DNA from: a phage
Sequence record: PZ324410.1
Length of the DNA: 47,561 nucleotides
Reading direction: 5' to 3' (one strand)
A program made the translations under genes and the position numbers. The notes beneath the pieces were generated by a model. It had not been told where the DNA came from. It saw only the letters and a list, made by a program, of their open reading frames with translations, and ran no database searches. This document shows, in pieces, positions 2,976 through 39,091 of the stretch; position 1 is the stretch's first letter, and each line of letters starts with the position of its first letter.

Positions 2976-3001
2976 ATCCCTCCATCGTGAGGGATTTTTT
3001 A
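2976..3001 (+). terminator. rho-independent terminator
   Basis: atccctc...gagggat hairpin followed by TTTTTT. Confidence 0.55.
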
Positions 3002-3011
3002 TTGGTGACAT

Positions 3012-4424
3012 ATGTCAAAAATCGACGCTTTAAACGCCTACATACGCGATCGCGTGGCGAACAATAACCGGGCGCTTCAGCAACAACGGCTTTGTGCTGG
3101 TGGGAAGAATCTGGACCAGAAACGTGAGTTCATGTGGAAGGAGTTGGGCTACCCGCAGGAAATCACCGCCGAGATGTTCCGCTATGCCTACGAGCGACAT
3201 CCAGCTGCAGCCGCTGGCATTAACCGCATTATTAATAAATGCTGGCAGAAATACCCTGAAGTGGTAGAAGATGGCGAGGATGACAAGAGTTCAACGCCGT
3301 GGGAGCTGTCCATCAACGACATGATGAAGCGCGCCTATCCGTTCATCAAGGAGGCTGACAAGCGCAATGCTATTAACCGCTATTCCGCTGTTATCCTGCA
3401 AATCCGTGACGGCAAGCAGTGGAGCGAGCCTGTTGACATCACCAAAACCCGCCGCATTAAAGATAAATCCATTGTTCGCTTTATTCCAGTGTGGGAAGAG
3501 CAGCTCCGTGTCAGTGCGTGGAATAACGACGAAACCAGCGAAGACTACGGAATGCCTGAGATGTACGAATATCAGGAAAGCGCCGTAGAGGATTTCGACA
3601 GCGACGGCAAGCCTGAGCGTTCCGTGCAGATTCACCCTGACCGTATCATCATTCTGGCTGAGGGTAGTTTTGATGGTAGCATGTTCAGTGGCATCCCGAT
3701 GTTGCGTGCTGGTTACAATAGCCTTATCGACATGGCTAAGGTTTCCGGTAGTTCAGCAGAAGGCTTCCTGAAGAATGCCAGCCGTCAACTGGCGGTAAAC
3801 TACACGAAGGATAACGTAACGCCAGCAAGTCTTGCGCAGTCGATGGGTGTCGATATTGAAGAACTTACCGACATTATGAATGAGAACATTGAGGCGTTAA
3901 ACTCAGGCATCGACGCCGCTATGTTCACAATGGGTGCGGATGCAAAAGTTCTCGCTGTGACTCCAGCTGACCCGAAGCCAACATGGGAGGTAGCCGCCAA
4001 CCAGTTCGCCGCATCAATGGCGCTTCCGTTCACCGTCATATTTGGGCAGCAGACCGGGCGCCTTGCAAGCGACGAAGACAAGATGCAGGAGGCGATGACC
4101 GCCAAGCAACGTCGAGAAACGTGGGTTGACTATGTTATTTCAATGTTCGTTGAGCGCATGATTCAGTTCGGCATTGTCGATAAAGCCCCGGAAAATGGCT
4201 ACAAGGTTAAGTGGGATGACCTGCTTGCTCCTTCAGAACTAGATAAAGCTGAATTGCTGGCTAAACTCGCCACTGCGAACAAATCGTTCTTTGATGCTGG
4301 TCAATCTGCGTTGCTGAGCGTCGATGAAGCGCGCGGCATGGTTGGTATGGACCCGATTGAACTCGACGAAACCTACCGCGAAGACACGCCGCCGGAAGAC
4401 GAAAATGAAGATACTCCGGTTTAA
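3012..4424 (+). CDS. portal protein
   Basis: 470-aa ORF with acidic C-terminus downstream of terL; position and size typical of siphovirus portal. Confidence 0.75.
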
Positions 4425-5358
4425 TGCAAGGCTACCCCAACCGCGCATATCGCAGAGTCTGACCGACCCGTTAGGTGCTGCAACCCGACTGTCGAAGATG
4501 GATAAGGTGATAACGCGCAAATACAAACAACTCAGGACTAGTGCGCTTGAGTTGTTTCGCACCATTCCGCATACTCAGACTAACGCAGAATCAAGTGGCC
4601 TGTATTTCTACGATTTCAGTAGTGCGCGTGCTGCTACGTTCATGGATGAGCTACAAGCGCTGATTGACGAGATTCTGCTGGAAGGTGACGACTTCGGTCA
4701 CGGCAGGATGTGGGCTAATGTGTTCATTGGTGATGCATATCAGGCCGGAACGCAGAAGGCCAACTCAGAACTATCAAGTCTGTCTCCGGTTTACGCCGAA
4801 CAGAGGCCGATTGCCGCGATACTCTACAGTGAGCCATATCTGAATCGGCTGCGGCTTGCGTATACGGCTGGTTACTCGGACTGGCGTGGGTTGAGCGATT
4901 ATTCCCGTCAACAACTGGCATCTGTCATTATGGAAGGCATTGCCCGGGGTGCTAATCCTCGCGATGTTGAGGCTGACATCATTAAGCGTGTCGATGTGTC
5001 TCACAGCTACGCGAAACAGATAGCGCAGACTGAAATCACCGGAACGCTGCGACAGGCTAACAGGCGGGAAGTCATTGAGGCGCGCGAGGAATTGGGAATT
5101 GAAACGGTGATGCTGTGGCAATCGGCATTATTACCTGGTCGAACGAGATTTACTCACGCGGCACGGCACGGGCGGTTTTACACGCCAGAGGAGATTGATA
5201 CGTTCTATAGTGAAGTTGCTAATCGCAGGAATTGTCATTGCTCTCAGAGTCCAGCATTGCTAATGGACGGTAAGCCTGTAATTTTGGAATCAAGCCAAGA
5301 GCGTCTAGATAGGCAAAGGGAATCATGGGAAAAGGTAAACAAGAAGAAAGCTAAATGA
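4405..5358 (+). CDS. head morphogenesis protein (Mu F / SPP1 gp7-like minor head protein)
   Basis: ORF 4324..5358; start set to ATG at 4405 overlapping portal end; start uncertain (alternative ATG 4498). Confidence 0.6.
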
Positions 5359-6013: not shown

Positions 6014-6042
6014 AAAAGCCCTCTAAGTGAGGGCTTTGATTT
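6014..6042. terminator. stem-loop terminator between convergent genes
   Basis: aaagccctc taagt gagggcttt hairpin with A/T runs on both sides. Confidence 0.55.
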
Positions 6043-6113
6043 ATCTTATCAGCATGCACAGAACAAATATTATTATCGCATAGCACAATATCTCTACGAC
6101 GCTGAATATTGTT

Positions 6114-6728
6114 TTAATCCTCCAGCTTCACGCCTGGAATTTTACCAATCTCAATCGCCTCAATGATTCTTTCAGCCAACCCAATGTATCCTTCTGCGCC
6201 TTTTGGGTTGCCATAATAATAAAAAATAGTCTCTACCATATCGTTAACCATGGCATCGCGCTTCTTGTCTGCTTCTGAGCGGAGTGGGCGGAATTCACAT
6301 AGCTTATCACTGAAGTAAACTGCATGCCGATCATAATTCCATCCGAATGCAAATCCATCGTGATTAGCAATGATGTCAACAGGAATAAAATAACCAACCG
6401 CATCTTGCATCTCACACTCACACCCAACCGGAGGCAGGCCTTCGCCATTCCATGTGGGTTTCTGCGATGCTGCGAGTGCGGATTCGTATTGGTCGCGGGT
6501 TACGATTGATTCTGCATTGTCACATGATAACCAATCGTCATCATCAAATAGAAAGTATCCAGATAAGCCTCTTCCGCTTATGTGTCCCCATCCAAATCCG
6601 TTGTATTTTGGGTCATCGTACTTCCAGCAACATAAATAACCGTCACTATTTTGCGTTACAGACACCCAGTTTTCACGCCATCCACCACGCTTGGGTAATT
6701 CACGCACTAACAAGTCGATAAGTTTCAT
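6114..6728 (-). CDS. hypothetical protein (204 aa, Trp/Gly/Cys-rich)
   Basis: long ORF with stop/start coupling to neighbours; no family recognised. Confidence 0.55.
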   Translation of the reverse strand: MKLIDLLVRELPKRGGWRENWVSVTQNSDGYLCCWKYDDPKYNGFGWGHISGRGLSGYFLFDDDDWLSCDNAESIVTRDQYESALAASQKPTWNGEGLPPVGCECEMQDAVGYFIPVDIIANHDGFAFGWNYDRHAVYFSDKLCEFRPLRSEADKKRDAMVNDMVETIFYYYGNPKGAEGYIGLAERIIEAIEIGKIPGVKLED

Positions 6729-11068: not shown

Positions 11069-11283
11069 GAAAGCAAAGCACTATAGCTGATTTGGTACTT
11101 GCTGATTTTAGAGAGCAGAGCGCAAGAAATAAACGGCACAAAAACCAGAATGACAACAGAACTTCCATGCAGTGGCTGAAAGATAACTTTGGCAAGAAAT
11201 CGCACAAATACAGAAGGGATAGAGTTTTGCTGATGCTCATTAATTTAAACATGAAGGCAACTATTGCGAGGTTGATGAAGTGA
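11065..11283 (+). CDS. hypothetical basic protein
   Basis: ORF 11056..11283 trimmed to ATG 11065 overlapping previous stop. Confidence 0.45.
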   Translation: MRKQSTIADLVLADFREQSARNKRHKNQNDNRTSMQWLKDNFGKKSHKYRRDRVLLMLINLNMKATIARLMK

Positions 11284-13050: not shown

Positions 13051-14804
<1,754 letters not shown>

Positions 14805-14806
14805 TA

Positions 14807-15877
14807 ATGGAAAAGATTATTTTTACCAAAGACCTGGTAGCCAACTCCGCAGTGGTGGCTGACCAGTGGAAACATCTGACCATCGACCGCAAGGTGTTCT
14901 GCAATGCAGAAGCTGAACTGGCGAAAACATACGGTGTTAACGCCACCGCACTGGTAACGAAAGATTACTGGCGCGACGTGGATAACGTCACCACCCGCGT
15001 TTTCCGTAACGAAGCTGGTCAGGACATGATGGCTGACCTGATGGGTATCGCGGCAAACATCAATATCGGTAAGACTGTGGCAGTCAGCCGCATCGCTTCC
15101 GATGCCGGTAAGGTGGTCCGCACCCTGTCTGGTCAGGAGCCGGAAGATTTGGACAAAACTCGCTATGATTACACTGGCGATGTGATTCCAATCTTCAAGA
15201 CTGGCTACAGCCGTGAATGGCGTGAACTGCTGGGTATGCAGTCTGAAGGTTTTGACCCACTGCTGGACGATCAGGCTAACGTCACCTTTAACCTGCGTTC
15301 CGACATGGCGCAGTATCTGCTGACTGGCGACCAGACCCTGAACGTGAACGGCGTTTACACTGGCTACGGTATCACCAACCACCCGAACACTGTTCAGGTT
15401 AACCTGAGCACTTCCCCCGGCCTGAACATTGACCTGCAAACCGCAACGCCAGACGAAATCGTGAAATTCTTCAATCAGGATTTCCAGGCTATTCTGGATG
15501 CGCAGAACGTATTTGAGCAGGTGACTCTGTGGGTTTCCCCGGCAGTGCGTCGCAGCTTCATGCGCCCGTATTCTGATGCGGCTGGCTTCAAAGGTGGTAC
15601 TGTTGAGCAGTACATCACGCAGTTCGGCAATGGTCGCATCGGCAAGATTGGCACCAACTTCCTGCTGACAGGCAACCATTTCGTTGGCTATGTTCGCAAC
15701 GACATGTACATCCGTCCGCGTGTTGCTCAGCCTGTTTCCACCTATGCGGCTGCCCGCGCCAACCCGCACGATAACTTTAACTTCCTCGTGTGGTCAGCTT
15801 TTGGCCTGCAAATCCGTAAGGATTTCACTGGTAAGTCCAAAGTGTTCAACGGCTACGGTACGCAAACTCCGCTGTAA
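14807..15877 (+). CDS. major capsid protein
   Basis: 356-aa ORF in lambda E-like position; strong terminator follows. Confidence 0.75.
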   Translation: MEKIIFTKDLVANSAVVADQWKHLTIDRKVFCNAEAELAKTYGVNATALVTKDYWRDVDNVTTRVFRNEAGQDMMADLMGIAANINIGKTVAVSRIASDAGKVVRTLSGQEPEDLDKTRYDYTGDVIPIFKTGYSREWRELLGMQSEGFDPLLDDQANVTFNLRSDMAQYLLTGDQTLNVNGVYTGYGITNHPNTVQVNLSTSPGLNIDLQTATPDEIVKFFNQDFQAILDAQNVFEQVTLWVSPAVRRSFMRPYSDAAGFKGGTVEQYITQFGNGRIGKIGTNFLLTGNHFVGYVRNDMYIRPRVAQPVSTYAAARANPHDNFNFLVWSAFGLQIRKDFTGKSKVFNGYGTQTPL

Positions 15878-15883
15878 TAAAAA

Positions 15884-15905
15884 AGAGGGGCTTCGGCCCC
15901 TTTGT
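15884..15905 (+). terminator. rho-independent terminator
   Basis: ggggc ttcg gcccc hairpin followed by TTTG. Confidence 0.6.
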
Positions 15906-15921
15906 GAATTTGAGGTGAATA

Positions 15922-16119
15922 ATGGCTAAGTACGAAGTGATCGCACGCGGAATCTTTGTTAAAGAGAAAGGCAAGATTCGTGAATTGCAGCTCGGCGAGG
16001 TGATTACCGAACCAGCTGAGCATCTGCTACCAAAGCTGCGCGTCATGCCAGAGCTGGAAAGGTCTTTCGAAGTCGCAACACCACAAGAAAGGACGACAAA
16101 GAAAAAGAAAGCAGAGTAA
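15922..16119 (+). CDS. hypothetical protein
   Basis: 65-aa ORF between two terminators. Confidence 0.45.
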   Translation: MAKYEVIARGIFVKEKGKIRELQLGEVITEPAEHLLPKLRVMPELERSFEVATPQERTTKKKKAE

Positions 16120-25575: not shown

Positions 25576-27950
25576 TGGCTGAAGAAGTCGGCGGAATTGT
25601 CTACGAAGTCGGGATGGATGTTAAAGGCCTGAAAGCTGGCGCGACAACAGCCAATAAGACTTTAGATGACCTTGAATCATCAACCAACAAAACCACAAGC
25701 GCGCTTGGCAAGCTGGATAAAAACGCCAGAAATGCTGGCAGCGGAATGAAGAATGCTGGCGGCGCAGCTTCAGGGCTTAAAACCAGTATGTCTATGTTAG
25801 CTGGTGCCATCTCAGTGTCATTGATTATCGAATGGGGAAAAAGATTCCTTGAGGTTGCCGATAACATGACTCAGCTTCAGGCAAGGATTGCTCGCCTGTC
25901 AACTGACGCGAAAACCGCGAACGAAACATTCAGTTCACTGGCAAATATCGCCTCAACCACTGGCGCAAGCCTCAGTGAAACCACGAAGCTTTGGGAGACA
26001 TTAACATCATCACTGAAAGAGGCTGGCGCGACGAATGCGCAAGTTCTTAACCTTACCGATACCCTGCAAAAAATAGGTCGAATTGGCGGGTCATCAACCG
26101 AAGAAATGGCGAACGCCCTGCGCCAGTTCGGCCAGTCAATAGCATCTGGCACAATCCGCGCGGAAGAGTTCAACTCCATCCTTGAGCAGATGCCTGAACT
26201 TGCACGCCAGATAGCCGCTGGCCTTGGTATTTCAATGGGTGAACTTCGCGCTAGAATGCTTGACGGAAAACTGACGGCAGAAGATGCATTGAACGCCATT
26301 CAGGACAGAACAAGCGTCGTCAACGCTGAGTTTGAAAAACTTCCTCGCACAATGGATCAGGCCGTTGGTTCTCTGGAAGTTTCATTCTCCAAACTTGTGG
26401 TTGCTGTTAACGATGCTACTGGCGCGTCAAAAACAGCAGTGGAGATTATCGACCAGCTGGCAAAATACATTGATTTCCTCGGCGACAAATCAACCAGCAC
26501 GAGTGATAAAATTCTGTCTCTCGCCACTGTTATTTCCAAGTTAAATCCCGGCGCGTGGGCGCAAATGGGAGTTGATGCGCTTTTTGGTGATGACGACATT
26601 GAGAAGCAGAAGAAATATAACGATCAGGTCGAGCGATTCGTTAAGGCATCGGCGGAAGGTTACGAACAGACAAAAAAACAGGCTGAAGCAACAAAACACC
26701 TGAAGATTGCGCAGGCACCAACCAAAGACAAAAAAGGCAAAGGAAAGGGCAAAAGCGCCGAAGAGCGACAAGCTGAATCAGTGGCTGAAAAGCTGGAGAA
26801 ATTACGCCAGCAAACCATGCTCAATGCCACATCTACCAGCGAACTCTCCCGCGAGCAAGCCATCCTCAATGCGCAACAATCGCTTGGCAAAGCCGCCACA
26901 CAGGAGCAGATAAAACTGGCTGGCGAGTATGCTGCGAAGATTTGGGACCAGAAGAATGCGCTGAAGGAACAGGCGGAAGCGGAGAAGGAAAGGCAGCGCG
27001 TAGAAAAATCATATCAGGGATTACGTGCCATTGCGTCACCAACGACTGGCATTGACAGTGAATACCAGCAACGCATGGCTGACCTTGATGCCTACGCCGC
27101 AGCATATCCGCAGAAAATCACGGAGATTGAGCAGACTCGCGCAGCAATTGAAGCACAATACCGCCAACAGCGAATGGATGCGATGTGGGCTGAATGGCAG
27201 CAACAAAGCCTCGGAGCGCAACTGTTCGGTACGGCGCTTGATTCGGCAATGAGCACGGCATCAAACAGCATAACCGGATTGCTGACAGGCACAATGAGTG
27301 TGCAGGATGCGATGCGCAGTCTAGGCTCTACGGTCCTTAACTCTCTGGTAAATAGTTTCGTCGAAATGGGCGTGCAGTGGGTTAAATCTGCGGTTATGGG
27401 GCAGGCGGCACAGGTTGCGGCAACGGCAACAACAACGGCTGCGCAAACGGCAGGACTGGCAACCACAACAGCAGCATCCACTGCGGCGGCAGCAACCACT
27501 ACGGCGGCATGGACTCCTGCGGCAATCGTAGCATCAATCGGCTCATTCGGTGGGGCGGCTGCAATTGGGGTTGGTGCCGTTCTCGGCGCACTGGCGATGG
27601 GCGTAGCTGGCAAGCGTAAGAATGGCGGCCCTGTTAGCGCAGGAAGCATGTACGAAGTAGGCGAGAATGGCTTGCCTGAGATATTCCAGGCGTCCAACGG
27701 TCGCCAGTACATGATTCCAGGCAACGATGGCTCAGTTATCAGCAACAAAGACCTGACAGGAGGCAGCAGTGGCGTTGTGGTTTATAATAACGTCATCAAT
27801 AACAGCTCTGCTCAGGTTAGCAGCAGAGCCAGAGATAACGGTGATGGCAGCGTGACAATTGAGACTATCGTTAGTGACATCGAAAACAACGGCCCCATAG
27901 GGCAAAGCATTAGCCGCAACTACTCAGCAAACCGGAGAGCAACCGAATAA
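25575..27950 (+). CDS. tail tape measure protein
   Basis: 791 aa, long helical/coiled-coil regions and Ala/Thr/Gly-rich segment with hydrophobic stretch. Confidence 0.8.
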   Translation: MAEEVGGIVYEVGMDVKGLKAGATTANKTLDDLESSTNKTTSALGKLDKNARNAGSGMKNAGGAASGLKTSMSMLAGAISVSLIIEWGKRFLEVADNMTQLQARIARLSTDAKTANETFSSLANIASTTGASLSETTKLWETLTSSLKEAGATNAQVLNLTDTLQKIGRIGGSSTEEMANALRQFGQSIASGTIRAEEFNSILEQMPELARQIAAGLGISMGELRARMLDGKLTAEDALNAIQDRTSVVNAEFEKLPRTMDQAVGSLEVSFSKLVVAVNDATGASKTAVEIIDQLAKYIDFLGDKSTSTSDKILSLATVISKLNPGAWAQMGVDALFGDDDIEKQKKYNDQVERFVKASAEGYEQTKKQAEATKHLKIAQAPTKDKKGKGKGKSAEERQAESVAEKLEKLRQQTMLNATSTSELSREQAILNAQQSLGKAATQEQIKLAGEYAAKIWDQKNALKEQAEAEKERQRVEKSYQGLRAIASPTTGIDSEYQQRMADLDAYAAAYPQKITEIEQTRAAIEAQYRQQRMDAMWAEWQQQSLGAQLFGTALDSAMSTASNSITGLLTGTMSVQDAMRSLGSTVLNSLVNSFVEMGVQWVKSAVMGQAAQVAATATTTAAQTAGLATTTAASTAAAATTTAAWTPAAIVASIGSFGGAAAIGVGAVLGALAMGVAGKRKNGGPVSAGSMYEVGENGLPEIFQASNGRQYMIPGNDGSVISNKDLTGGSSGVVVYNNVINNSSAQVSSRARDNGDGSVTIETIVSDIENNGPIGQSISRNYSANRRATE

Positions 27951-28422
27951 TGGCTATCATCAAATACCCTGACTGGCTGCCACTCGCACAGCGCGCCAGC
28001 AAAAACCTTACTTTTCAAACCCCTTTCAGGAAGGATACCCCAGCCGTTGGGGCGCCGATATTTCAAAAATTAACGACTGACGTCGCAGTCACATGGAGCA
28101 TTACGTGGGTCTTTACACTGGAACAAGAGCGGGCTTTTATGCAGTGGTTAAGGAGTTCAAAATACCTCAACCACTGCAACAACTGGTTCACCATGATGAT
28201 TGACCTCGGCGGTAGTGGATTGCAGGAGCAGACGCTGCACTTTACCGATTACCCGGTGCAGACAAGCATTGATGGCGGCGTGGTTACGTGGACTGGCAAT
28301 GTCATCGCTAAAAAGCTCAATAACACGATGGATGAGTTTGATGATGTTCTGGTTGAGCTTGATTACAGATGGTATAGCTTCCTTGATGAAACTGTAAGCA
28401 GAGAACTGCCAGAACACAGCAA

Positions 28423-28426: not shown

Positions 28427-32548
<4,122 letters not shown>

Positions 32549-32587
32549 TACAATATACATCAAATTCACAAAGGAGCATTTATTATA

Positions 32588-34480
32588 ATGGCTACCACAC
32601 CAACCAATTTACCAATCCCGTCAGAAGACCCGCGCGATCTAAAATTTAACGCTGGTAAGTTTGATGAAGTCATGACGTCTGATGCGCATTACTACGTGGA
32701 CAGATTTGGCGTAAAACGCTGGACGATTGCAGGGTTTCAATTTACCGCAGAAGAGGCTATCCGTAACTATGGATACATCACAATGGATAGCTTCGAAGAT
32801 GGCGCGACGTTGACACTACCAAACCAAGTCCTGCGCTATGAAGCAACCGGAGAATATTACCGCTGGGACGGTGCATTTCCTAAAACTGTCGCTGCTGGTT
32901 CAACCCCAGCAACAACTGGCGGCGTTGGTTTAGGTGCATGGGTTAGCGTTGGTGATGCTTCTCTGCGGTCAAATTTAGCAGCATCTAATGGATATACTTT
33001 AGTTGGTGGCCTTGCTGAGCATTATAGCCTCCCTGTTAAGTTCGTTGTTGTTGATAACGCACCTTACAATGGCGATTTAAAAGCAGCACTAACAGCAGCA
33101 ACACCTGGTAGTGTTTTCTGGTTGGGCAAGAAAACGCATAACATTACTGGGCTATATGGTGTCAATAAAAATACCGTTGAGAATATTACTATCGTTGGGG
33201 CCGGAATGCCGCAACTATCATCTGATAAACGATATCTTATAGATGGGACTGGCACCATTATTCAAGGCACAATTAAAAATCAGGCAAGAGGCTTCAAGAT
33301 ATTTAATTGTGGTATAGACGTTGGTGATTATGTTTCTCAAAACGTTTATCCGACAGTTACTTATGAAGATGGCCTGCAGCATTACGGTGTTGGTGCAAAT
33401 GCAAACATTGAAATACATAACGTGAAAATTCTTAACACCGTGACAGACCCATCAAAACCAGGTACTCACAGCATTCTGCTTGAGCAATTATCCGGTGTAA
33501 CTTTGGGTTACGTTGAGTGCATTGGAGGATTTCACGGCCTGGCAATAAAATGCCAAAATCTGCAAGGTGGTCGTGCTCACTGCTATGGTCAGTACGGTGA
33601 TGCATTCATCATTAAATCAGATTCTGGTGGTGCATGTGCTGACATTCACATGGAAAGAATCACAGTTGGCCTTTATGACAACACCGGCTGGCCTGATGTC
33701 ACTATGGGCGGAATTTATGACGCTCATGATAACGTTACAATCGACAAAATTGGCATTGGTGAGTTAATTGTGCAAAACGCGTCATGGGGATTTATACCAT
33801 CTTATGCCAATACCGGTTTCATAACAAACGTCAGCATTGGTAGATACTCTGCATTCAATGTCTATGGGAACTATTATTCATTAACCATTGATAATAAATG
33901 TGTTGGTTGGACTATTGGTGAGCACAGAATTAGCAATGCATCTGGCGGCATTCGTGTTCACCCGGACTCTGCTGAGATAAATATAGGAACAGGATCGTCA
34001 AAAGGAAACACAAAAAGTGGTTATGCGCTAGGTGGTAACAGCCTCAGTCATGGGGTTCTGTTTGCTAACGAAAACGGTGAAGCGGGTGTGGAATATCTCG
34101 GTGGGTTAGGTTTTGATGCATCGCTTGTCCGTGGTTACGTGAACGGAACCGTTCTTGTATCAGGAATGCCGAGTGTGAAAGATGGTACACCCGTTAATGG
34201 ATGGGCTGATACTGGTGCATTTGATATGACTTTAACTGGTAAAACAGTGCGTATAACAGGTTCGTTAACCAGAGGTACAGCCGCTGTTGCATATAATACT
34301 ATCTCCGCATGTAGACCTTTAAAAAGAGTACCAGTACCAGCATGGGGTGTTAATGCATCAAGTACAATGGTTCCAGTAGAATGTTATATTGAAACCAACG
34401 GGCAGCTAAACATTTCAGGTTTTGCATCGATCCCAACAGGCGGGACAATTTATTTTAGCGGTGAATATTTAACTAAGTAA
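32588..34480 (+). CDS. tail fibre protein with conserved N-terminal anchor and AT-richer C-terminal region
   Basis: 630 aa; N-terminus MATTPTNLPIPSEDPRDLKFNAGKFDE typical of enterobacterial phage fibres; C-terminal two thirds of lower GC. Confidence 0.65.
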   Translation: MATTPTNLPIPSEDPRDLKFNAGKFDEVMTSDAHYYVDRFGVKRWTIAGFQFTAEEAIRNYGYITMDSFEDGATLTLPNQVLRYEATGEYYRWDGAFPKTVAAGSTPATTGGVGLGAWVSVGDASLRSNLAASNGYTLVGGLAEHYSLPVKFVVVDNAPYNGDLKAALTAATPGSVFWLGKKTHNITGLYGVNKNTVENITIVGAGMPQLSSDKRYLIDGTGTIIQGTIKNQARGFKIFNCGIDVGDYVSQNVYPTVTYEDGLQHYGVGANANIEIHNVKILNTVTDPSKPGTHSILLEQLSGVTLGYVECIGGFHGLAIKCQNLQGGRAHCYGQYGDAFIIKSDSGGACADIHMERITVGLYDNTGWPDVTMGGIYDAHDNVTIDKIGIGELIVQNASWGFIPSYANTGFITNVSIGRYSAFNVYGNYYSLTIDNKCVGWTIGEHRISNASGGIRVHPDSAEINIGTGSSKGNTKSGYALGGNSLSHGVLFANENGEAGVEYLGGLGFDASLVRGYVNGTVLVSGMPSVKDGTPVNGWADTGAFDMTLTGKTVRITGSLTRGTAAVAYNTISACRPLKRVPVPAWGVNASSTMVPVECYIETNGQLNISGFASIPTGGTIYFSGEYLTK

Positions 34481-34484
34481 CAAA

Positions 34485-34510
34485 AACCCCGCTTCGGCGG
34501 GGTTAGTTTT
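34485..34510. terminator. bidirectional rho-independent terminator
   Basis: aaccccgc ttcg gcggggtt hairpin then TTTTT. Confidence 0.65.
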
Positions 34511-34542
34511 TAGAAGTGGCTGATTGTAATCGGTGATGATGG

Positions 34543-34968
34543 CTAATTTTGTTTTGGATAATTCTTCGATCTCCAGTCGTTAAAAGCCATCATTGCTGCT
34601 TCCCATCCTAGCGCTACACACACTGTGCATCCGGCATTTAAAGATGCGGAAAGGTAATCAATCTGGCCTTCCTCCCAATCGCTAAGAGTGTGGTCTTTCC
34701 TCTTCATCTCAATAACAAGAGATGGATTTCCAGGGATTATTATATCTGACGCACCTTTATTTAAAGCGCCTTTCTTTTTTAGGTTGCTGACCTCATGTGC
34801 TTTTCTCTTTCCTTCGTTTGGAATGTGAAGCACCAGCCGACCAAAACTATCAGGATACATTTTCCTCAATTGATTTATAAAAGTTACAAGCTCAGCGTCT
34901 TCAACATGACACTTCTTGTCTCTGTATGTTTTATCTCCATATACCTTTAGCCATTCAGGAAAAATCAT
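34543..34968 (-). CDS. VRR-NUC domain nuclease
   Basis: PD-(D/E)xK-like core DIIIPG...VIEMKRK in 141-aa ORF trimmed to ATG 34968. Confidence 0.5.
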   Translation of the reverse strand: MIFPEWLKVYGDKTYRDKKCHVEDAELVTFINQLRKMYPDSFGRLVLHIPNEGKRKAHEVSNLKKKGALNKGASDIIIPGNPSLVIEMKRKDHTLSDWEEGQIDYLSASLNAGCTVCVALGWEAAMMAFNDWRSKNYPKQN

Positions 34969-36830
34969 AATACCCCCCAATACATGCCTTTAACGTTGAA
35001 ATATTTACTACCCTTATCTCTTCTGAACATAATCACTGATGGCGAGACAGCCTCATCTCTTTTAGATATTGCATCATCAATTGACATGTTATGTTCACCA
35101 AAGCACTTCTCACAAAATTCTTCCCACTCCTTCTTCATCCATTCCTTCTCAGAGTTTGGATTGTAGAACTTGCTAACAAAAAATGGTTTCTGTTCAATAG
35201 CAAATTTTACGTGCACCAAATCTTCACCGCTTGAAACGTAATGCTTCATGATGTTCATCATGGTTACACTTGATTGCTTGGTTGCATAAGGAGAAGAATC
35301 AAGCCTGTCAGCTTCTTCCTTTAGTTTTTGGTTGGGGTCAATAATTTCAGCTCCGCATGATGTGCAATTTCTTGCTGCTATATCATTTTCAAACCCACAA
35401 TCTGGACACTCCTTTACCGACCATTTATAAGTACACCTATGCATTTCCCTTAGTGGTCCATGCATAACGTAGTTTTTACACCGCCTACCAAAATGAGCAG
35501 GCATGGGCTTGCTTCCAATCTTTTCACCTGACTTATCAAAAATATCAATCATTACTCTGTCACCCGCCAAATCCAGCCAGTAACCTTCCTTGTCAACTTC
35601 AAGATTTTCAGGATTTGGGCGCACACCAAATTCATTAATAAAGCCACAAAGAGGGCATTTGACATCCATTGGCACGGATGGTTTTTTCCTTGTTGCTTTT
35701 ATTTCTGGAGTGAACAAGTCCCCGGTCTCAGAAAAGTGACGTTGAATATTGCCTGCGTAATCGCTGACAAGAAAGTCTTCCTTGCCTTCATAAAGACGCG
35801 TCCCCCTGCCAATTATTTGCTGGTATAGTCTTGGTGATTCTGTGGCTCTCATTACTGCTATGTGATCACAATGAGGAACATCCACCCCTACAGTAAGGAT
35901 ATTCTGATTGACGATGTATTTAACTTTTTGCGCCTTGAAGTCTGATATTGCCTTATTGCGTTCAGCTGTCGGCATATCACCAAAAACATAACTATAAGAA
36001 CCGGGAGGCAGTGACTCCATTATCTCCATAGCGTGTTTCTTTGTGCTGGCAAAAATCATCGTTCCGAGACGATTAACGGAGCGACGGATAATATCTTCAA
36101 CAATACGTGATGTCTTCCTTCCCTTGCCAACCATCGCCTTTTCAACTGAAGATGTTGTGTACCGACCCAACTTATCCTTTTCAAGACAAGACGTATCATA
36201 CTCGTCAAAAACAGGCTCTGTAACTGGCGGCGTAAGGTATCCGTTTTCAATGAGGAATTTCGCCTCAAGCTCATAAACGACTTTGTCGTAATATGGGTCT
36301 ATGGCTGTTTCTTCATCTGTAGGACCGTCGAGGTAATGCTCTTTGTAGATGTATCCAGTTCCAAGGCGATAAGGCGTAGCGGTCATTCCAATAACACGCA
36401 GTTTTGGATTGCGACGCTTCATTTCATTAATAATAAATTTAATGGTTGGTGTTATTCCATCGCACTCATCAATAATGACAGCACCATACTTATCACCAAA
36501 CATCTCTATTGAGTTCTTGATTGTAACTGGTGAACCAAACACCACCGGATGACGCAGGTTTTTTGGGCCAGCCTTTGCACTGAACATGCTGGCTGGTTCT
36601 CCGGTGAGAAGATATTTAGCGCGATTTTGTGTGACGAGTTCCGCCGTGGGAGCAATGCACAAAACTCGCTTTTTGCTCATGCCATAAATACGAGATGCAA
36701 GTTCTGCTACAACCATAGATTTTCCTGCACCTGTAGGTAGGATGATAACGCATGATGAGATTGTGCTGCGAATGTGTGCCATAGCTGAATCAACAGCTTC
36801 CTGTTGGTATGGCCTTAGTGTGTATTTCAT
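34965..36830 (-). CDS. SF2 DEAD/DEAH-box DNA helicase with C-terminal zinc fingers
   Basis: Walker A PTGAGKS, DECD box, MTATP motif, QIIGRGTR motif VI; Cys pairs near C-terminus. Confidence 0.8.
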   Translation of the reverse strand: MKYTLRPYQQEAVDSAMAHIRSTISSCVIILPTGAGKSMVVAELASRIYGMSKKRVLCIAPTAELVTQNRAKYLLTGEPASMFSAKAGPKNLRHPVVFGSPVTIKNSIEMFGDKYGAVIIDECDGITPTIKFIINEMKRRNPKLRVIGMTATPYRLGTGYIYKEHYLDGPTDEETAIDPYYDKVVYELEAKFLIENGYLTPPVTEPVFDEYDTSCLEKDKLGRYTTSSVEKAMVGKGRKTSRIVEDIIRRSVNRLGTMIFASTKKHAMEIMESLPPGSYSYVFGDMPTAERNKAISDFKAQKVKYIVNQNILTVGVDVPHCDHIAVMRATESPRLYQQIIGRGTRLYEGKEDFLVSDYAGNIQRHFSETGDLFTPEIKATRKKPSVPMDVKCPLCGFINEFGVRPNPENLEVDKEGYWLDLAGDRVMIDIFDKSGEKIGSKPMPAHFGRRCKNYVMHGPLREMHRCTYKWSVKECPDCGFENDIAARNCTSCGAEIIDPNQKLKEEADRLDSSPYATKQSSVTMMNIMKHYVSSGEDLVHVKFAIEQKPFFVSKFYNPNSEKEWMKKEWEEFCEKCFGEHNMSIDDAISKRDEAVSPSVIMFRRDKGSKYFNVKGMYWGVL

Positions 36831-37800: not shown

Positions 37801-38280
37801 TTATTTGATGATCAGTTTTGGCTTGCCATCTGTAATGGCACAACCCTTAATCTCAATCCCGGCTTTTATCGCATTTTTAATTGCTGCGTTATCTGCCGAC
37901 ACTTTCACAACGCGGTACTGCTCAGGAAGCTGTTCAACAGGGACAAACACATCAAGAACTGGTGATGGTTTTCCAAGCGTGATACTGAACAACTTACCTT
38001 TGATGTTTGTCTTTCCTGACGCCATCATGTTTTGACGAAGATAATCTTTAAGGTTATCAATCTTCGCAACTAAAACACGCTTACGCTCAGAAAGACGGTC
38101 AATCTCTGATTTAAGTCCAGCTTCATCAGCTTCAAGCTCACGAATGTAAGCAGCAACCATTTCAGCCTTTCCTTCAAACTCCTCTTCAATAAGATTGATG
38201 GTATCTTCAATCTGCTCCCGTGGAATATCCTCCATCGCCAGTAGTTCATTAAGCTGTTTGGTTATCTCGTAGAGATGCAT
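37801..38280 (-). CDS. Sipho_Gp157 family protein
   Basis: N-terminal MHLYEITKQLNEL and coiled-coil typical of Gp157; start uncertain. Confidence 0.55.
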   Translation of the reverse strand: MHLYEITKQLNELLAMEDIPREQIEDTINLIEEEFEGKAEMVAAYIRELEADEAGLKSEIDRLSERKRVLVAKIDNLKDYLRQNMMASGKTNIKGKLFSITLGKPSPVLDVFVPVEQLPEQYRVVKVSADNAAIKNAIKAGIEIKGCAITDGKPKLIIK

Positions 38281-39091
38281 AATATTTAATCTCACTCAAA
38301 AGTGGGTTCTCACCTTTTTCAAAAGGAATTTCAGGTTCAAGGTTGTATCTGTTTTTAGCATTAACATACCCAATACGACCATCACCAGAGGTGATAAGAA
38401 CTCGCTGACCAGTCTGAACAACCTTTCCAAACTTGGTGACTTGCCCTTTCTTATCAGTCTCAGTTCCTTTCACAAACTCTTCATTTCTGATGTAAATAAC
38501 AGCATCACTAAGATTCACATAACCAGAAACTGAAGCATCATGCATGTCAAGTGTGTAAACGGTGTATTCATCAGCATCAGGTCGATTCTTCATCTTTTTA
38601 ACACCTGCGTGTGCAAGATAAATAATGCTCATCCCTTTTTCTTTGCGAAGATACTTGCATGCATTTATTATTTCAGCGTGCATTTCAGAAACAACAATAT
38701 ATCCTTTGTTGTAACCACCAGCCGCAGAACCTACGTTGTCAACACCGTAATTTTCACAAACCTCATGCTCAAACATTGAATGCAGGCTTGTGATTGAGTC
38801 AATTACAAGCGTTTTGTAATTATGTTCCTCAGTAATTAATGCGCGTAGCTGTGACAGCAAATCATCCTTTGTGCTTGTTTTGCGTTTAGCGTCAGCGCGA
38901 TTCAGAACAGGAAATGAATCAGGTTTCTTTTCATCATCCCAGTCATCAAAAACACCAGTGATCTCTTCAGCCTGAATAAACACTGGGTTTGGGAATAGCG
39001 CCGCAAGAGTTGTCTTGCCTACACCTGGAGTACCAACCAATGTTATGATTGGTGCTGCTGGTTTTGGTTTTTGAATCATTGATAAGCTCAT
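38249..39091 (-). CDS. AAA_24 family ATPase (Sak4-like)
   Basis: Walker A GTPGVGKTT and Walker B-like VIDSITSL; GAGAGGACA RBS. Confidence 0.7.
   Translation of the reverse strand: MSLSMIQKPKPAAPIITLVGTPGVGKTTLAALFPNPVFIQAEEITGVFDDWDDEKKPDSFPVLNRADAKRKTSTKDDLLSQLRALITEEHNYKTLVIDSITSLHSMFEHEVCENYGVDNVGSAAGGYNKGYIVVSEMHAEIINACKYLRKEKGMSIIYLAHAGVKKMKNRPDADEYTVYTLDMHDASVSGYVNLSDAVIYIRNEEFVKGTETDKKGQVTKFGKVVQTGQRVLITSGDGRIGYVNAKNRYNLEPEIPFEKGENPLLSEIKYYASLRDNQTA

Follow-up and report, generated by a model that had tools for sequence, protein, structure and literature searches.

A phage tailspike gene that joins a lineage-typical tail anchor to a beta-helix module common to several phage lineages

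The window analysed here, a stretch of 47,561 nucleotides of phage DNA (PZ324410.1), carries on its plus strand a tailspike gene at 32588..34480, a single open reading frame of 630 codons plus stop that encodes a protein of 630 amino acids. The gene lies directly 3' of the gene for a J-like tail-tip (baseplate hub) protein, and the tail module is collinear in the phages Sa179lw, LPST10 and gmqsjt-1. It is 100% identical to an unannotated contig, OR845258, and 90.6% identical to a CF-SP1 gene annotated as "tail spike protein". A preliminary description of this DNA had spoken of a tail-fibre gene; with a predicted beta-helix and a Tail_spike_N anchor, the product is a tailspike instead. The sequence of the window was assembled from short reads of a mixed sample in which an Emek-like allele is also present. 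Identical contigs come from an S. Kentucky sample, and the GenBank twin of the window is a SPAdes contig labelled as an E. coli O157:H7 phage and flagged UNVERIFIED_ORG. The window also contains a 127-nt duplication with the appearance of an artefact.

The N-terminal anchor or adaptor domain (amino acids 1-127; 32588..32968, plus strand) is delimited by Pfam, PDB and protein matches. The Pfam family PF18668 (Tail_spike_N) matches residues 63-123 with 72.8 bits against a gathering cut-off of 25, and chain G of PDB entry 9OCC, which is gp13 of phage Sf11, matches residues 1-134 with E = 1e-68. The protein identity of the anchor amounts to 96% with CF-SP1, 94% with LPST10 and 86% with Sa179lw, while Emek has no match; these relatives (86-96%) are tailspikes of Buchanan-, Skate- and Swiduovirus siphophages. 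On these matches, the first ~120 codons do encode a conserved anchor, as had been proposed. In Sf11 gp13, residues 4-59 pack with the distal tail protein's adaptor helix into a helical bundle in which Arg16 and Lys19 are engaged in salt bridges (PMC12724387). Both R16 and K19 are present in the tailspike studied here, and by homology to Sf11 gp13 we predict tail-docking helices at amino acids 4-59 (32597..32764, plus strand). The N-terminal helices of the anchor would likewise pack with an adaptor helix of the phage's own distal tail protein and so place six tailspike trimers at the tip of a Buchananvirus-like siphophage tail. The likeness to Sf11 (PDB 9OCC; J Virol 2025, PMC12724387) extends beyond the homologous anchor with its two basic residues: the Sf11 gene also follows the tail-tip gene in a Buchananvirus-type siphophage backbone, and its siphophage tail bears podovirus-like enzymatic tailspikes through an adaptor. 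In contrast, the C-terminal module of Sf11 gp13 is Sf6-like and directed to the Shigella flexneri O-antigen, and has no sequence match to the present protein past amino acid 134.

The C-terminal receptor-binding module (amino acids 128-630; 32969..34477, plus strand) is predicted to comprise a right-handed parallel beta-helix followed by a C-terminal beta domain (AlphaFold monomer, pLDDT 94), with no close solved relative. A sequence search of the PDB matched the anchor only and returned no match beyond amino acid ~177 at E <= 0.01. Among 51 homologues, residues D244, H294, E299, H316, K321, K343 and D345 are retained in 90% or more; they form a candidate active site. PHROG 8875 matches amino acids 123-630 with E = 3e-280. 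Identity over amino acids 128-630 is 94% with CF-SP1, 86% with SP069 (Nonanavirus) and 85% with Emek (P22-like), and the module is 85-90% identical, over 100% of its extent, to the tailspikes of SP069, Emek and hundreds of Salmonella prophages, where it stands behind different N-terminal adaptors. The alignment with SP069/Emek-type tailspikes is collinear, with zero indels over 503 residues. Adaptors found in front of the module elsewhere are the P22 head-binding domain PF09008 (proteins of 618 aa), PF18668 (631 aa) and a 717-aa type with no Pfam match, and more distant relatives have PF03906 T7-tail N-termini. The module is C-terminal in every one of 170 cluster representatives, and at 52-57% identity it also occurs in 70-kb, 159-kb, 40-kb and 44-kb phages. 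SP-062/SP-069, Emek and P22-like prophages of O:8 serovars (PHROG 8875) thus carry the same C-terminal module, joined at the motif ...GY.L(V/I)GGLAEH..., but SP069 has its own divergent Tail_spike_N adaptor (47% identity over 60 aa), Emek has the P22 head-binding domain as its own, and both have other virion morphotypes and genome backbones.

Anchor and module meet in a left junction zone at codons 124-135 (...DASLRSNLAASNG...; 32958..32990, plus strand), which is bracketed by the homology boundaries of four relatives: homology ends at 32958 for LPST10 and at 32970 for Sa179lw, and starts at 32978 for SP069 and at 32990 for Emek. Separate similarity searches with the two halves, the check that the preliminary description had named, returned different relatives for amino acids 1-127 (LPST10, Sa179lw) and 128-630 (SP069, Emek), the latter segment having no match to LPST10 or Sa179lw. 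Sa179lw, the nearest relative of the backbone, aligns collinearly on either side at about 87-91% identity but has no homology at 32971-34536, returning at 34537. The C-terminal part of LPST10 is a Det7/P22 endorhamnosidase module on the same anchor (P22 and Det7 matches, E <= 1e-224). The idea of a horizontally exchanged receptor-binding region is therefore substantiated, as the module is common to unrelated phages and the nearest backbone relative lacks it. An end-to-end match to a single relative had been named as the outcome that would speak against exchange. CF-SP1 and gmqsjt-1 do match the whole protein, but both carry the same chimera, and we dropped the CF-SP1 match as a refutation because this phage has that chimera on a backbone only ~76% identical. 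The excess of 90.6% for its tailspike gene over that backbone value is further evidence of transfer. We consider it very probable that the protein is a two-module tailspike, a lineage anchor fused to a beta-helix module that moves as a cassette, would be drawn from a pool common to several phage lineages and probably binds the O:8 antigen.

Receptor-binding regions evolve fast, and the C-terminal part could have descended vertically, with rapid divergence under host selection taking the place of horizontal transfer. The proteins of SP-062 and SP-069 differ by only three residues, yet their host ranges differ (PMC3728262). However, the C-terminal part has no detectable similarity to those of Sa179lw or LPST10 and is 77-82% identical at the nucleotide level to genes in Nonanavirus and Lederbergvirus genomes; in the compared stretches of these genomes only the tailspike module aligns (in SP069 together with the terminator described below), and exact runs of 169-425 nt are held in common with other genomes. 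Breakpoints, domain-wise searches and exact runs refute vertical descent in practice, and we regard it as extremely improbable.

On its right side, the horizontally exchanged cassette is bounded by a bidirectional intrinsic terminator (AAAAACCCCGCTTCGGCGGGGTTAGTTTTT; 34481..34510, unstranded, with its stem at 34485-34504), which was matched in a scan of both strands. The same sequence lies 3-6 nt past the tailspike stop codon in CF-SP1, gmqsjt-1, SP069 and Sa179lw and about 290 nt further downstream in LPST10, so that this 30-nt element is common to Buchanan-, Skate-, Swiduo- and Nonanavirus and the unclassified gmqsjt-1. SP069 homology stops at 34510; the conserved terminator was not found downstream of the module in Emek. 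We infer a recombination mechanism in which the conserved end of the anchor (...VGDASLRS.L...) would serve as left boundary and the terminator as right boundary. Homologous recombination in these flanks would move whole modules between genomes, and recombination within the module between co-resident alleles, those of P22-like prophages included, would move sub-module tracts. Pas et al (2023; PMC10408124) describe receptor-binding-domain cassettes in tailspikes of E. coli phages that are flanked by conserved recombination motifs. The present case is like those cassettes in that homology runs to the end of the anchor and then stops and in that a cross-genus terminator lies downstream; unlike them, it concerns Buchanan-, Skate-, Swiduo- and Nonanavirus, a host that is probably Salmonella O:8, and exchange with alleles of P22-like prophages inside the module.

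Identity within the module is a patchwork. A tract of 169 nt (33804..33972, plus strand) is identical to the tailspike gene of P22-like Emek within an alignment of 75.8% identity, for which the chance expectation is about 1e-17; in our reading it stems from recombination or gene conversion. Two further exact runs on the plus strand are held in common with gmqsjt-1, one of 246 nt (33138..33383), near which the block 33491-33580 is only 69% identical to that phage, and one of 425 nt at the 3' end of the gene (34056..34480). The exact run with CF-SP1 amounts to 219 nt. All these runs stand in backgrounds of 70-80% identity, with no indels over 1530 nt.

Given the mixed sample, we weighed whether this mosaic could be an assembly artefact, with short reads of the siphophage tailspike and of an Emek-like prophage tailspike joined into one gene. 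The record is an UNVERIFIED_ORG SPAdes contig with the artefact-like duplication noted above, the gene is split over contigs in the S.Kent assembly, and the Emek-like contig of the sample (99.95% identical to Emek) begins with a 77-nt stretch that the window matches exactly (33896-33972). Coverage, however, is about 4028x for the phage contig versus 3.5x for the Emek-like contig, and on either side of the exact tract identity to Emek falls to 72-86%, so that the flanks do not derive from the Emek-like allele. Moreover, CF-SP1 (Malaysia) and gmqsjt-1 (China), which are independent isolates, have the same anchor-module architecture and the same length of 1893 nt, and together with coverage and flanks this makes assembly chimerism, in our judgement, very unlikely.

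If the mosaic is genuine, as we hold, one conceivable source is ongoing gene conversion between the module of this virulent siphophage and a homologous tailspike from a P22-like prophage that its own host carries, a reading that we entertain with some doubt. O:8 Salmonella prophages would then be a reservoir of alleles from which lytic phages sample tracts of 100-400 nt. Two observations point in that direction: the exact 169-nt match to Emek, and the Emek-like contig that the sample also yielded.

The latest exchange may also have been larger than the module, with a Skate-/Swiduovirus-like allele replacing the entire tailspike gene along with some of the upstream tail-tip gene, with the fusion of anchor and module being much older. 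The fall in identity to Sa179lw, from 92.7% to 72-80%, coincides with the gene start (~32577) and not with the domain junction, and the anchor is nearer to CF-SP1 (96% of amino acids) and LPST10 (94%) than to Sa179lw (86%). In the same direction, the CF-SP1 backbone is ~76% identical, yet identity rises to 85% at 31371-34528 and to 98.7% at 32877-33101, across the junction. However, gmqsjt-1 has long exact tracts in the module but an anchor that is only 76-83% identical, with a crossover near 33040, and therefore domain-level and sub-domain exchanges are also recent. We rate a whole-gene transfer as the latest event as quite conceivable, if slightly short of an even prospect; it and the domain swap are layers of one history and not exclusive. 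Exchange at this locus is layered, comprising whole-gene, domain-level and sub-domain tracts.

The preliminary description had based its case on base composition, seeing a shift to AT-richness after ~120 codons (from 32950) that made the rest of the gene more AT-rich than its surroundings. The GC profile is indeed not flat, although the drop is weak: GC falls from 0.489 (32588-32949) to 0.423 (32950-34480) in a window with a mean of 0.455, and GC3 from 0.425 to 0.311. The anchor as mapped here (32588..32968) has a GC of 0.493 and a GC3 of 0.417. The best all-nucleotide change point in the gene by maximum likelihood is 32971, which is inside the homology junction (32958-32990) and within about 20 nt of 32950. 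Statistically, the shift is weak. Permutation within the gene yields p = 0.25 when all bases are counted and p = 0.043 for GC3, whose best break is codon 94, not ~120; among random placements, 6.9% (one-sided) or 14% (two-sided) equal or exceed the difference between N- and C-terminal parts; and the total GC of the C-terminal part is at the 16th percentile of same-size windows in the genome. With a GC3 of 0.312, the C-terminal part ranks at the 2nd percentile among 62 putative genes (z = -1.9), well below the upstream tail genes (0.45-0.57). The AT-richness does not extend evenly to the end of the gene, where 200-nt windows vary from 0.37 to 0.475, and the 3' neighbourhood (34700-35300; GC 0.36-0.40) is more AT-rich than the C-terminal part of the tailspike.

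The shift might be something that receptor-binding modules at this locus have in common, owing to amino-acid content, weak codon selection or the module pool, and we consider the case for and against this to be evenly balanced. GC also drops after the anchor in LPST10 (0.486 to 0.425) and Sa179lw (0.475 to 0.436), and because both have unrelated C-terminal modules the dip is not specific to the module described here. The GC-richness of the anchor is found chiefly at codon positions 1 and 2 (0.55 and 0.50), a reflection of amino-acid content; the dip as a whole falls inside normal genome heterogeneity by the percentile and random placements given above, and 90-nt blocks within the module vary from 0.34 to 0.50. 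GC3, in turn, is largely free of amino-acid effects and nonetheless at the 2nd percentile of genes, the all-nucleotide change point falls on the homology junction, and in each of the three siphophage carriers module GC lies under that of the genome, in keeping with a pool that has a composition of its own, itself a form of foreignness. Should the dip be a property of the locus, the earlier proposal was right for a reason that does not discriminate.

Composition was likewise of little use for the direction of transfer. Module GC is 0.402 in SP069, 0.421 here, 0.418 in CF-SP1 and 0.457 in Emek and tracks the carrier only loosely; its proximity to a Nonanavirus genome of 42.8% GC is not discriminating and was dropped as evidence of direction. 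Total GC was rejected as a test of foreignness, being not significant against genome heterogeneity, and is retained as descriptive support only. The lower GC of the module, and especially its GC3, goes with a history of swapping but does not prove it. Because the signal is weak and common to unrelated modules at the locus, composition gives no independent support for a foreign origin, and the compositional argument alone could not have carried the conclusion of a module swap. A GC dip at a tailspike domain boundary is a poor test by itself, given that unrelated modules share it; what decides the matter is the mapping of breakpoints against relatives.

The named hosts of prophages that bear the module are Newport, Kentucky, Muenchen, Hadar, Blockley, Bovismorbificans, Emek, Albany and Brunei, all of which we take to be O:8 serovars. 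The recorded hosts of phages Emek and BP12B are Haardt and Hadar. By this host association, the module most likely binds the O-antigen of Salmonella serogroup O:8 (C2-C3), and it probably also cleaves it; in binding or cleaving this antigen, it would set host range. Phages SP-062 and SP-069 lyse Newport and Kentucky (PMC3728262), and the S. Kentucky origin of the identical contigs points the same way. Two records run counter to O:8: CF-SP1, whose module is 94% identical, is recorded with the host Paratyphi A (O:2), and the GenBank twin of the window is the E. coli O157:H7-labelled entry mentioned above. Our literature search found no biochemical study of Emek/SP069-type module members, of the Emek tailspike or of an O:8-specific tailspike.

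The arrangement has a known parallel in P22, Det7 and 9NA, a podovirus, a myovirus and a siphovirus in which one beta-helix receptor-binding module stands on lineage-specific N-termini. Their module belongs to the same overall fold class as the present one, and in LPST10 a P22/Det7-type module sits on the very anchor found here. Unlike in that family, the present module has no detectable sequence homology to the P22 tailspike, whose receptor-binding domain comprises gp9 residues ~110-666 (structural alignments reach only 7-12% identity), and P22 recognises O:2, O:4 and O:9 (PMC9965104) as opposed to the probable O:8 here. Host-range module swapping at this locus is a clear but ordinary case, which leaves current understanding in place while adding a new module and new genera to a known pattern. 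Tailspike modules are parts for retargeting phages and for phage-derived diagnostics, and this beta-helix module, uncharacterised and probably O:8-specific (Newport, Kentucky, Hadar, Muenchen), is already in use in nature with four or more types of adaptor. Both the join point and the downstream boundary are located to within a few codons and provide a template for chimeras with Sf11-, 9NA-, P22- or T7-type anchors.

The tailspike gene is one single ORF of 630 aa on the plus strand (32588–34480), flanked upstream by a tail-tip (J-like) gene and downstream, on the opposite strand, by a VRR-NUC-like gene and a helicase gene, a gene order identical in Sa179lw and gmqsjt-1. The window comprises a complete phage genome. 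Among annotated backbones, the closest are those of Buchananvirus Sa179lw and of Shigella phage Sf11 (~87–91% nucleotide identity, collinear), with Skatevirus phages next. The window is rotated so as to begin with the ATG of a 474-aa ORF (1–1425), equal in length to the gene annotated as terminase large subunit in gmqsjt-1. The N-terminal part of the tailspike (aa 1–127), preliminarily described as a conserved anchor, is indeed one: Pfam Tail_spike_N matches residues 63–123 with 72.8 bits (cut-off 25), the solved Sf11 tailspike gp13 (PDB 9OCC) matches residues 1–134 (E = 1e-68), and the anchor shares 96% of its residues with CF-SP1 (Swiduovirus), 94% with LPST10 (Skatevirus) and 86% with Sa179lw. 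In Sf11, residues 4–59 of gp13 form a helical bundle with an adaptor helix that belongs to the distal tail protein, Arg16 and Lys19 make the salt bridges, and the tail tip carries six trimers (PMC12724387); R16 and K19 are both present in the tailspike studied here.

Separate searches with the N- and C-terminal parts returned different relatives, bearing out the proposal of a swapped distal domain. Homology to Sa179lw ends at 32970 and restarts at 34537; that to LPST10 ends at 32958, after which only a 33-nt terminator (34478–34510, 97%) aligns. Homology to Nonanavirus SP069 extends from 32978 to 34510 (82% nt) and to the P22-like podophage Emek from 32990 to the stop codon (77% nt). In a nucleotide alignment, the junction falls in codons 124–135 (...DASLRSNLAASNG, then the shared GY.L(V/I)GGLAEH...). 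For the C-terminal module (aa 128–630), identity is 94% with CF-SP1, 86% with SP069 and 85% with Emek, and neither LPST10 nor Sa179lw gives a match. LPST10 carries a Det7/P22 endorhamnosidase module instead, and one anchor at this locus therefore takes different cassettes. The tailspike stop codon is directly followed by AAAAACCCCGCTTCGGCGGGGTTAGTTTTT, a predicted intrinsic terminator on either strand. This sequence also comes after the tailspike stop in CF-SP1, gmqsjt-1, SP069 and Sa179lw; in LPST10 it lies ~290 nt farther downstream, and Emek lacks it. For lytic E. coli phage genera, the same combination, a conserved stretch ending the anchor and a conserved terminator behind the gene, has been put forward as recombination hotspots at which receptor-binding domains are exchanged (PMC10408124). 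The ~290 extra bases between tailspike stop and terminator in LPST10 (about 6030–6320 of its sequence; compare 34481–34510 in the window) contain a terminator-like hairpin of their own (AAAGGCCCCTAAAGGGGCCTTCTTT) and may have come along with the P22-type cassette.

The module is widespread. Within the phage collection it occurs at 85–94% identity in Swiduovirus, Nonanavirus and Lederbergvirus and at 52–57% identity in TR2 (70.8 kb), SKML-39 (159 kb), a ~39.8-kb group and a ~44-kb group including BP12B (host S. Hadar). The large protein collection adds hundreds of Salmonella chromosomal (prophage) tailspikes at 86–90% identity, in which the module follows the P22 head-binding domain PF09008 (618 aa), an N-terminus without Pfam match (717 aa) or PF18668 (631 aa); more distant relatives have T7-tail-fibre N-termini (PF03906). 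It is C-terminal in all 170 cluster representatives, behind N-terminal extensions of ~0 to 880 residues. The serovars in source names are Newport, Kentucky, Muenchen, Hadar, Blockley, Bovismorbificans, Emek, Albany and Brunei, all of which we take to be O:8 (C2–C3). Newport was the isolation host of SP-062 and SP-069, and SP-062 lyses Kentucky as well (PMC3728262); an S. Kentucky sample yields contigs identical to the window. Serovar names, phage hosts and Kentucky contigs together give good support to the inference that the module is specific for O:8.

From an alignment of 51 sequences, AlphaFold2 modelled aa 128–630 with confidence (pLDDT 94, pTM 0.89), nearly entirely as beta strand. Foldseek hits agree with the model in fold class at low TM-scores, and the module has no sequence relative among solved structures. 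Seven residues that at least 90% of the 51 homologues share (D244, H294, E299, H316, K321, K343 and D345) cluster in the helix and are predicted candidates for an active site.

The alignment of the five alleles (window, CF-SP1, gmqsjt-1, SP069 and Emek) spans 1530 nt and contains no indel, but identity along it is patchy. Emek, 75.8% identical to the window overall, shares an exact 169-nt run at 33804–33972 (chance expectation ~1e-17). The gmqsjt-1 allele (92.4% overall) is exact at 34056–34480 and 33138–33383 but only 69% identical at 33491–33580 and 76–83% in the anchor. CF-SP1 (91.3% overall) reaches 98.7% over the junction (32877–33101), compared with a backbone average of ~76%. Vertical descent of the C-terminal part with fast divergence is excluded, as it is contradicted by both the distribution of the module and these exact tracts. 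Identity to Sa179lw falls at the gene start (~32577) and not at the domain boundary, which together with the patchy identity indicates a layered history: an older joining of the module to a gp13-type anchor would have been followed by whole-gene transfers between Buchanan-, Skate- and Swiduovirus-like phages and, last, by conversion over short tracts, with a P22-like allele involved in one or more of them. A second mosaic patch, in the J-like tail-tip gene (31527–31900), is 89–95% identical to Swiduovirus CF-SP1 but only 65–73% to Sa179lw, LPST10 and gmqsjt-1, elsewhere the closer backbones.

That the tailspike mosaic is an assembly chimera had to be considered because the source sample is mixed: the same "E. 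coli" sample contains a 3.5x contig 99.95% identical to the Emek tailspike end plus integrase, which starts with 77 nt identical in the window, as expected of a branch in a k=77 graph. This explanation is nevertheless very improbable, given that the phage contig has ~4028x coverage, that the sequence flanking the 169-nt tract is only 72–86% identical to Emek, and that independent isolates from Malaysia and China have the same architecture.

A more serious caveat than chimerism concerns base composition, and it touches the logic by which exchange was first proposed, not the conclusion. The preliminary description had relied on a shift towards AT from about codon 120. Such a shift exists: GC falls from 0.489 (32588–32949) to 0.423 (32950–34480; window mean 0.455), GC3 from 0.425 to 0.311, and the single maximum-likelihood change point for all bases within the gene is 32971, almost exactly at the proposed boundary. 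The effect is small, however, and within the usual variation of the genome, the C-terminal part lying at the 16th percentile of total GC among same-length windows and the difference between the parts being equalled at 6.9% of random placements (14% two-sided; within-gene permutation p = 0.25). GC3 gives the stronger picture (permutation p = 0.043, best break at codon 94), with the C-terminal part (0.312) at the 2nd percentile of 62 putative genes (z = −1.9) and other tail genes well above it (0.45–0.57). Only one gene of at least 150 aa has a GC3 (0.306) below that of the tailspike, a "recA-like NTPase" by synteny with Sa179lw and gmqsjt-1 (38249–39091, minus strand). GC-rich blocks (0.52–0.54) occur at 3000–5000, 14000–16000 and 26500–28000 against the genome average of 0.455, and 1-kb-scale compositional heterogeneity is therefore normal for this genome. 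Neither did the AT-richness prove uniform to the gene end (GC of 200-nt windows 0.37 to 0.475) or higher than in the 3′ surroundings, where the DNA directly after the gene is even more AT-rich. Nor is the shift module-specific: in LPST10 and Sa179lw, where the same anchor bears unrelated C-terminal modules, GC drops in the same way, and the dip may be a general property of receptor-binding modules at the tailspike locus.

In P22, Det7 and 9NA, one beta-helix receptor-binding module sits on adaptors that differ from lineage to lineage; this is the classic case of a known pattern, and the tailspike described here is a further example. The pattern has been analysed systematically in E. coli phages (PMC10408124) and was recently shown structurally for Sf11, the closest relative of this phage's tail (PMC12724387). 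Specific here are the module itself, of which we found no biochemically characterised or solved member in the literature, its placement on a gp13-type anchor in backbones resembling those of Buchanan-, Skate- and Swiduovirus, and the fine-scale evidence that sequence has been exchanged with P22-like alleles.

The host label is in doubt for the window, OR845258 and OR845519 because of the O:8-type Salmonella module, the S. Kentucky contigs and the Emek-like contig in an "E. coli" sample, a conflict that suggests carry-over between samples or growth on Salmonella. OR845258 (47,511 nt; "UNVERIFIED_ORG: Escherichia phage ECO95 1-6-1", a SPAdes contig from wastewater, Turkey) is the same sequence, rotated and reverse-complemented, and is listed as an E. 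coli O157:H7 phage. It lacks an exact 127-nt tandem duplication of the window (31098–31224 = 31225–31351) and is otherwise identical. The duplication causes a frameshift that splits the J-like tail-tip gene into ORFs 29935..31383 and 31244..32548, and resembles an overlap (k=127) left untrimmed at circularisation more than a biological feature. The SPAdes contig has a terminal overlap of 77 nt, which is trimmed in the window (11142–11218).
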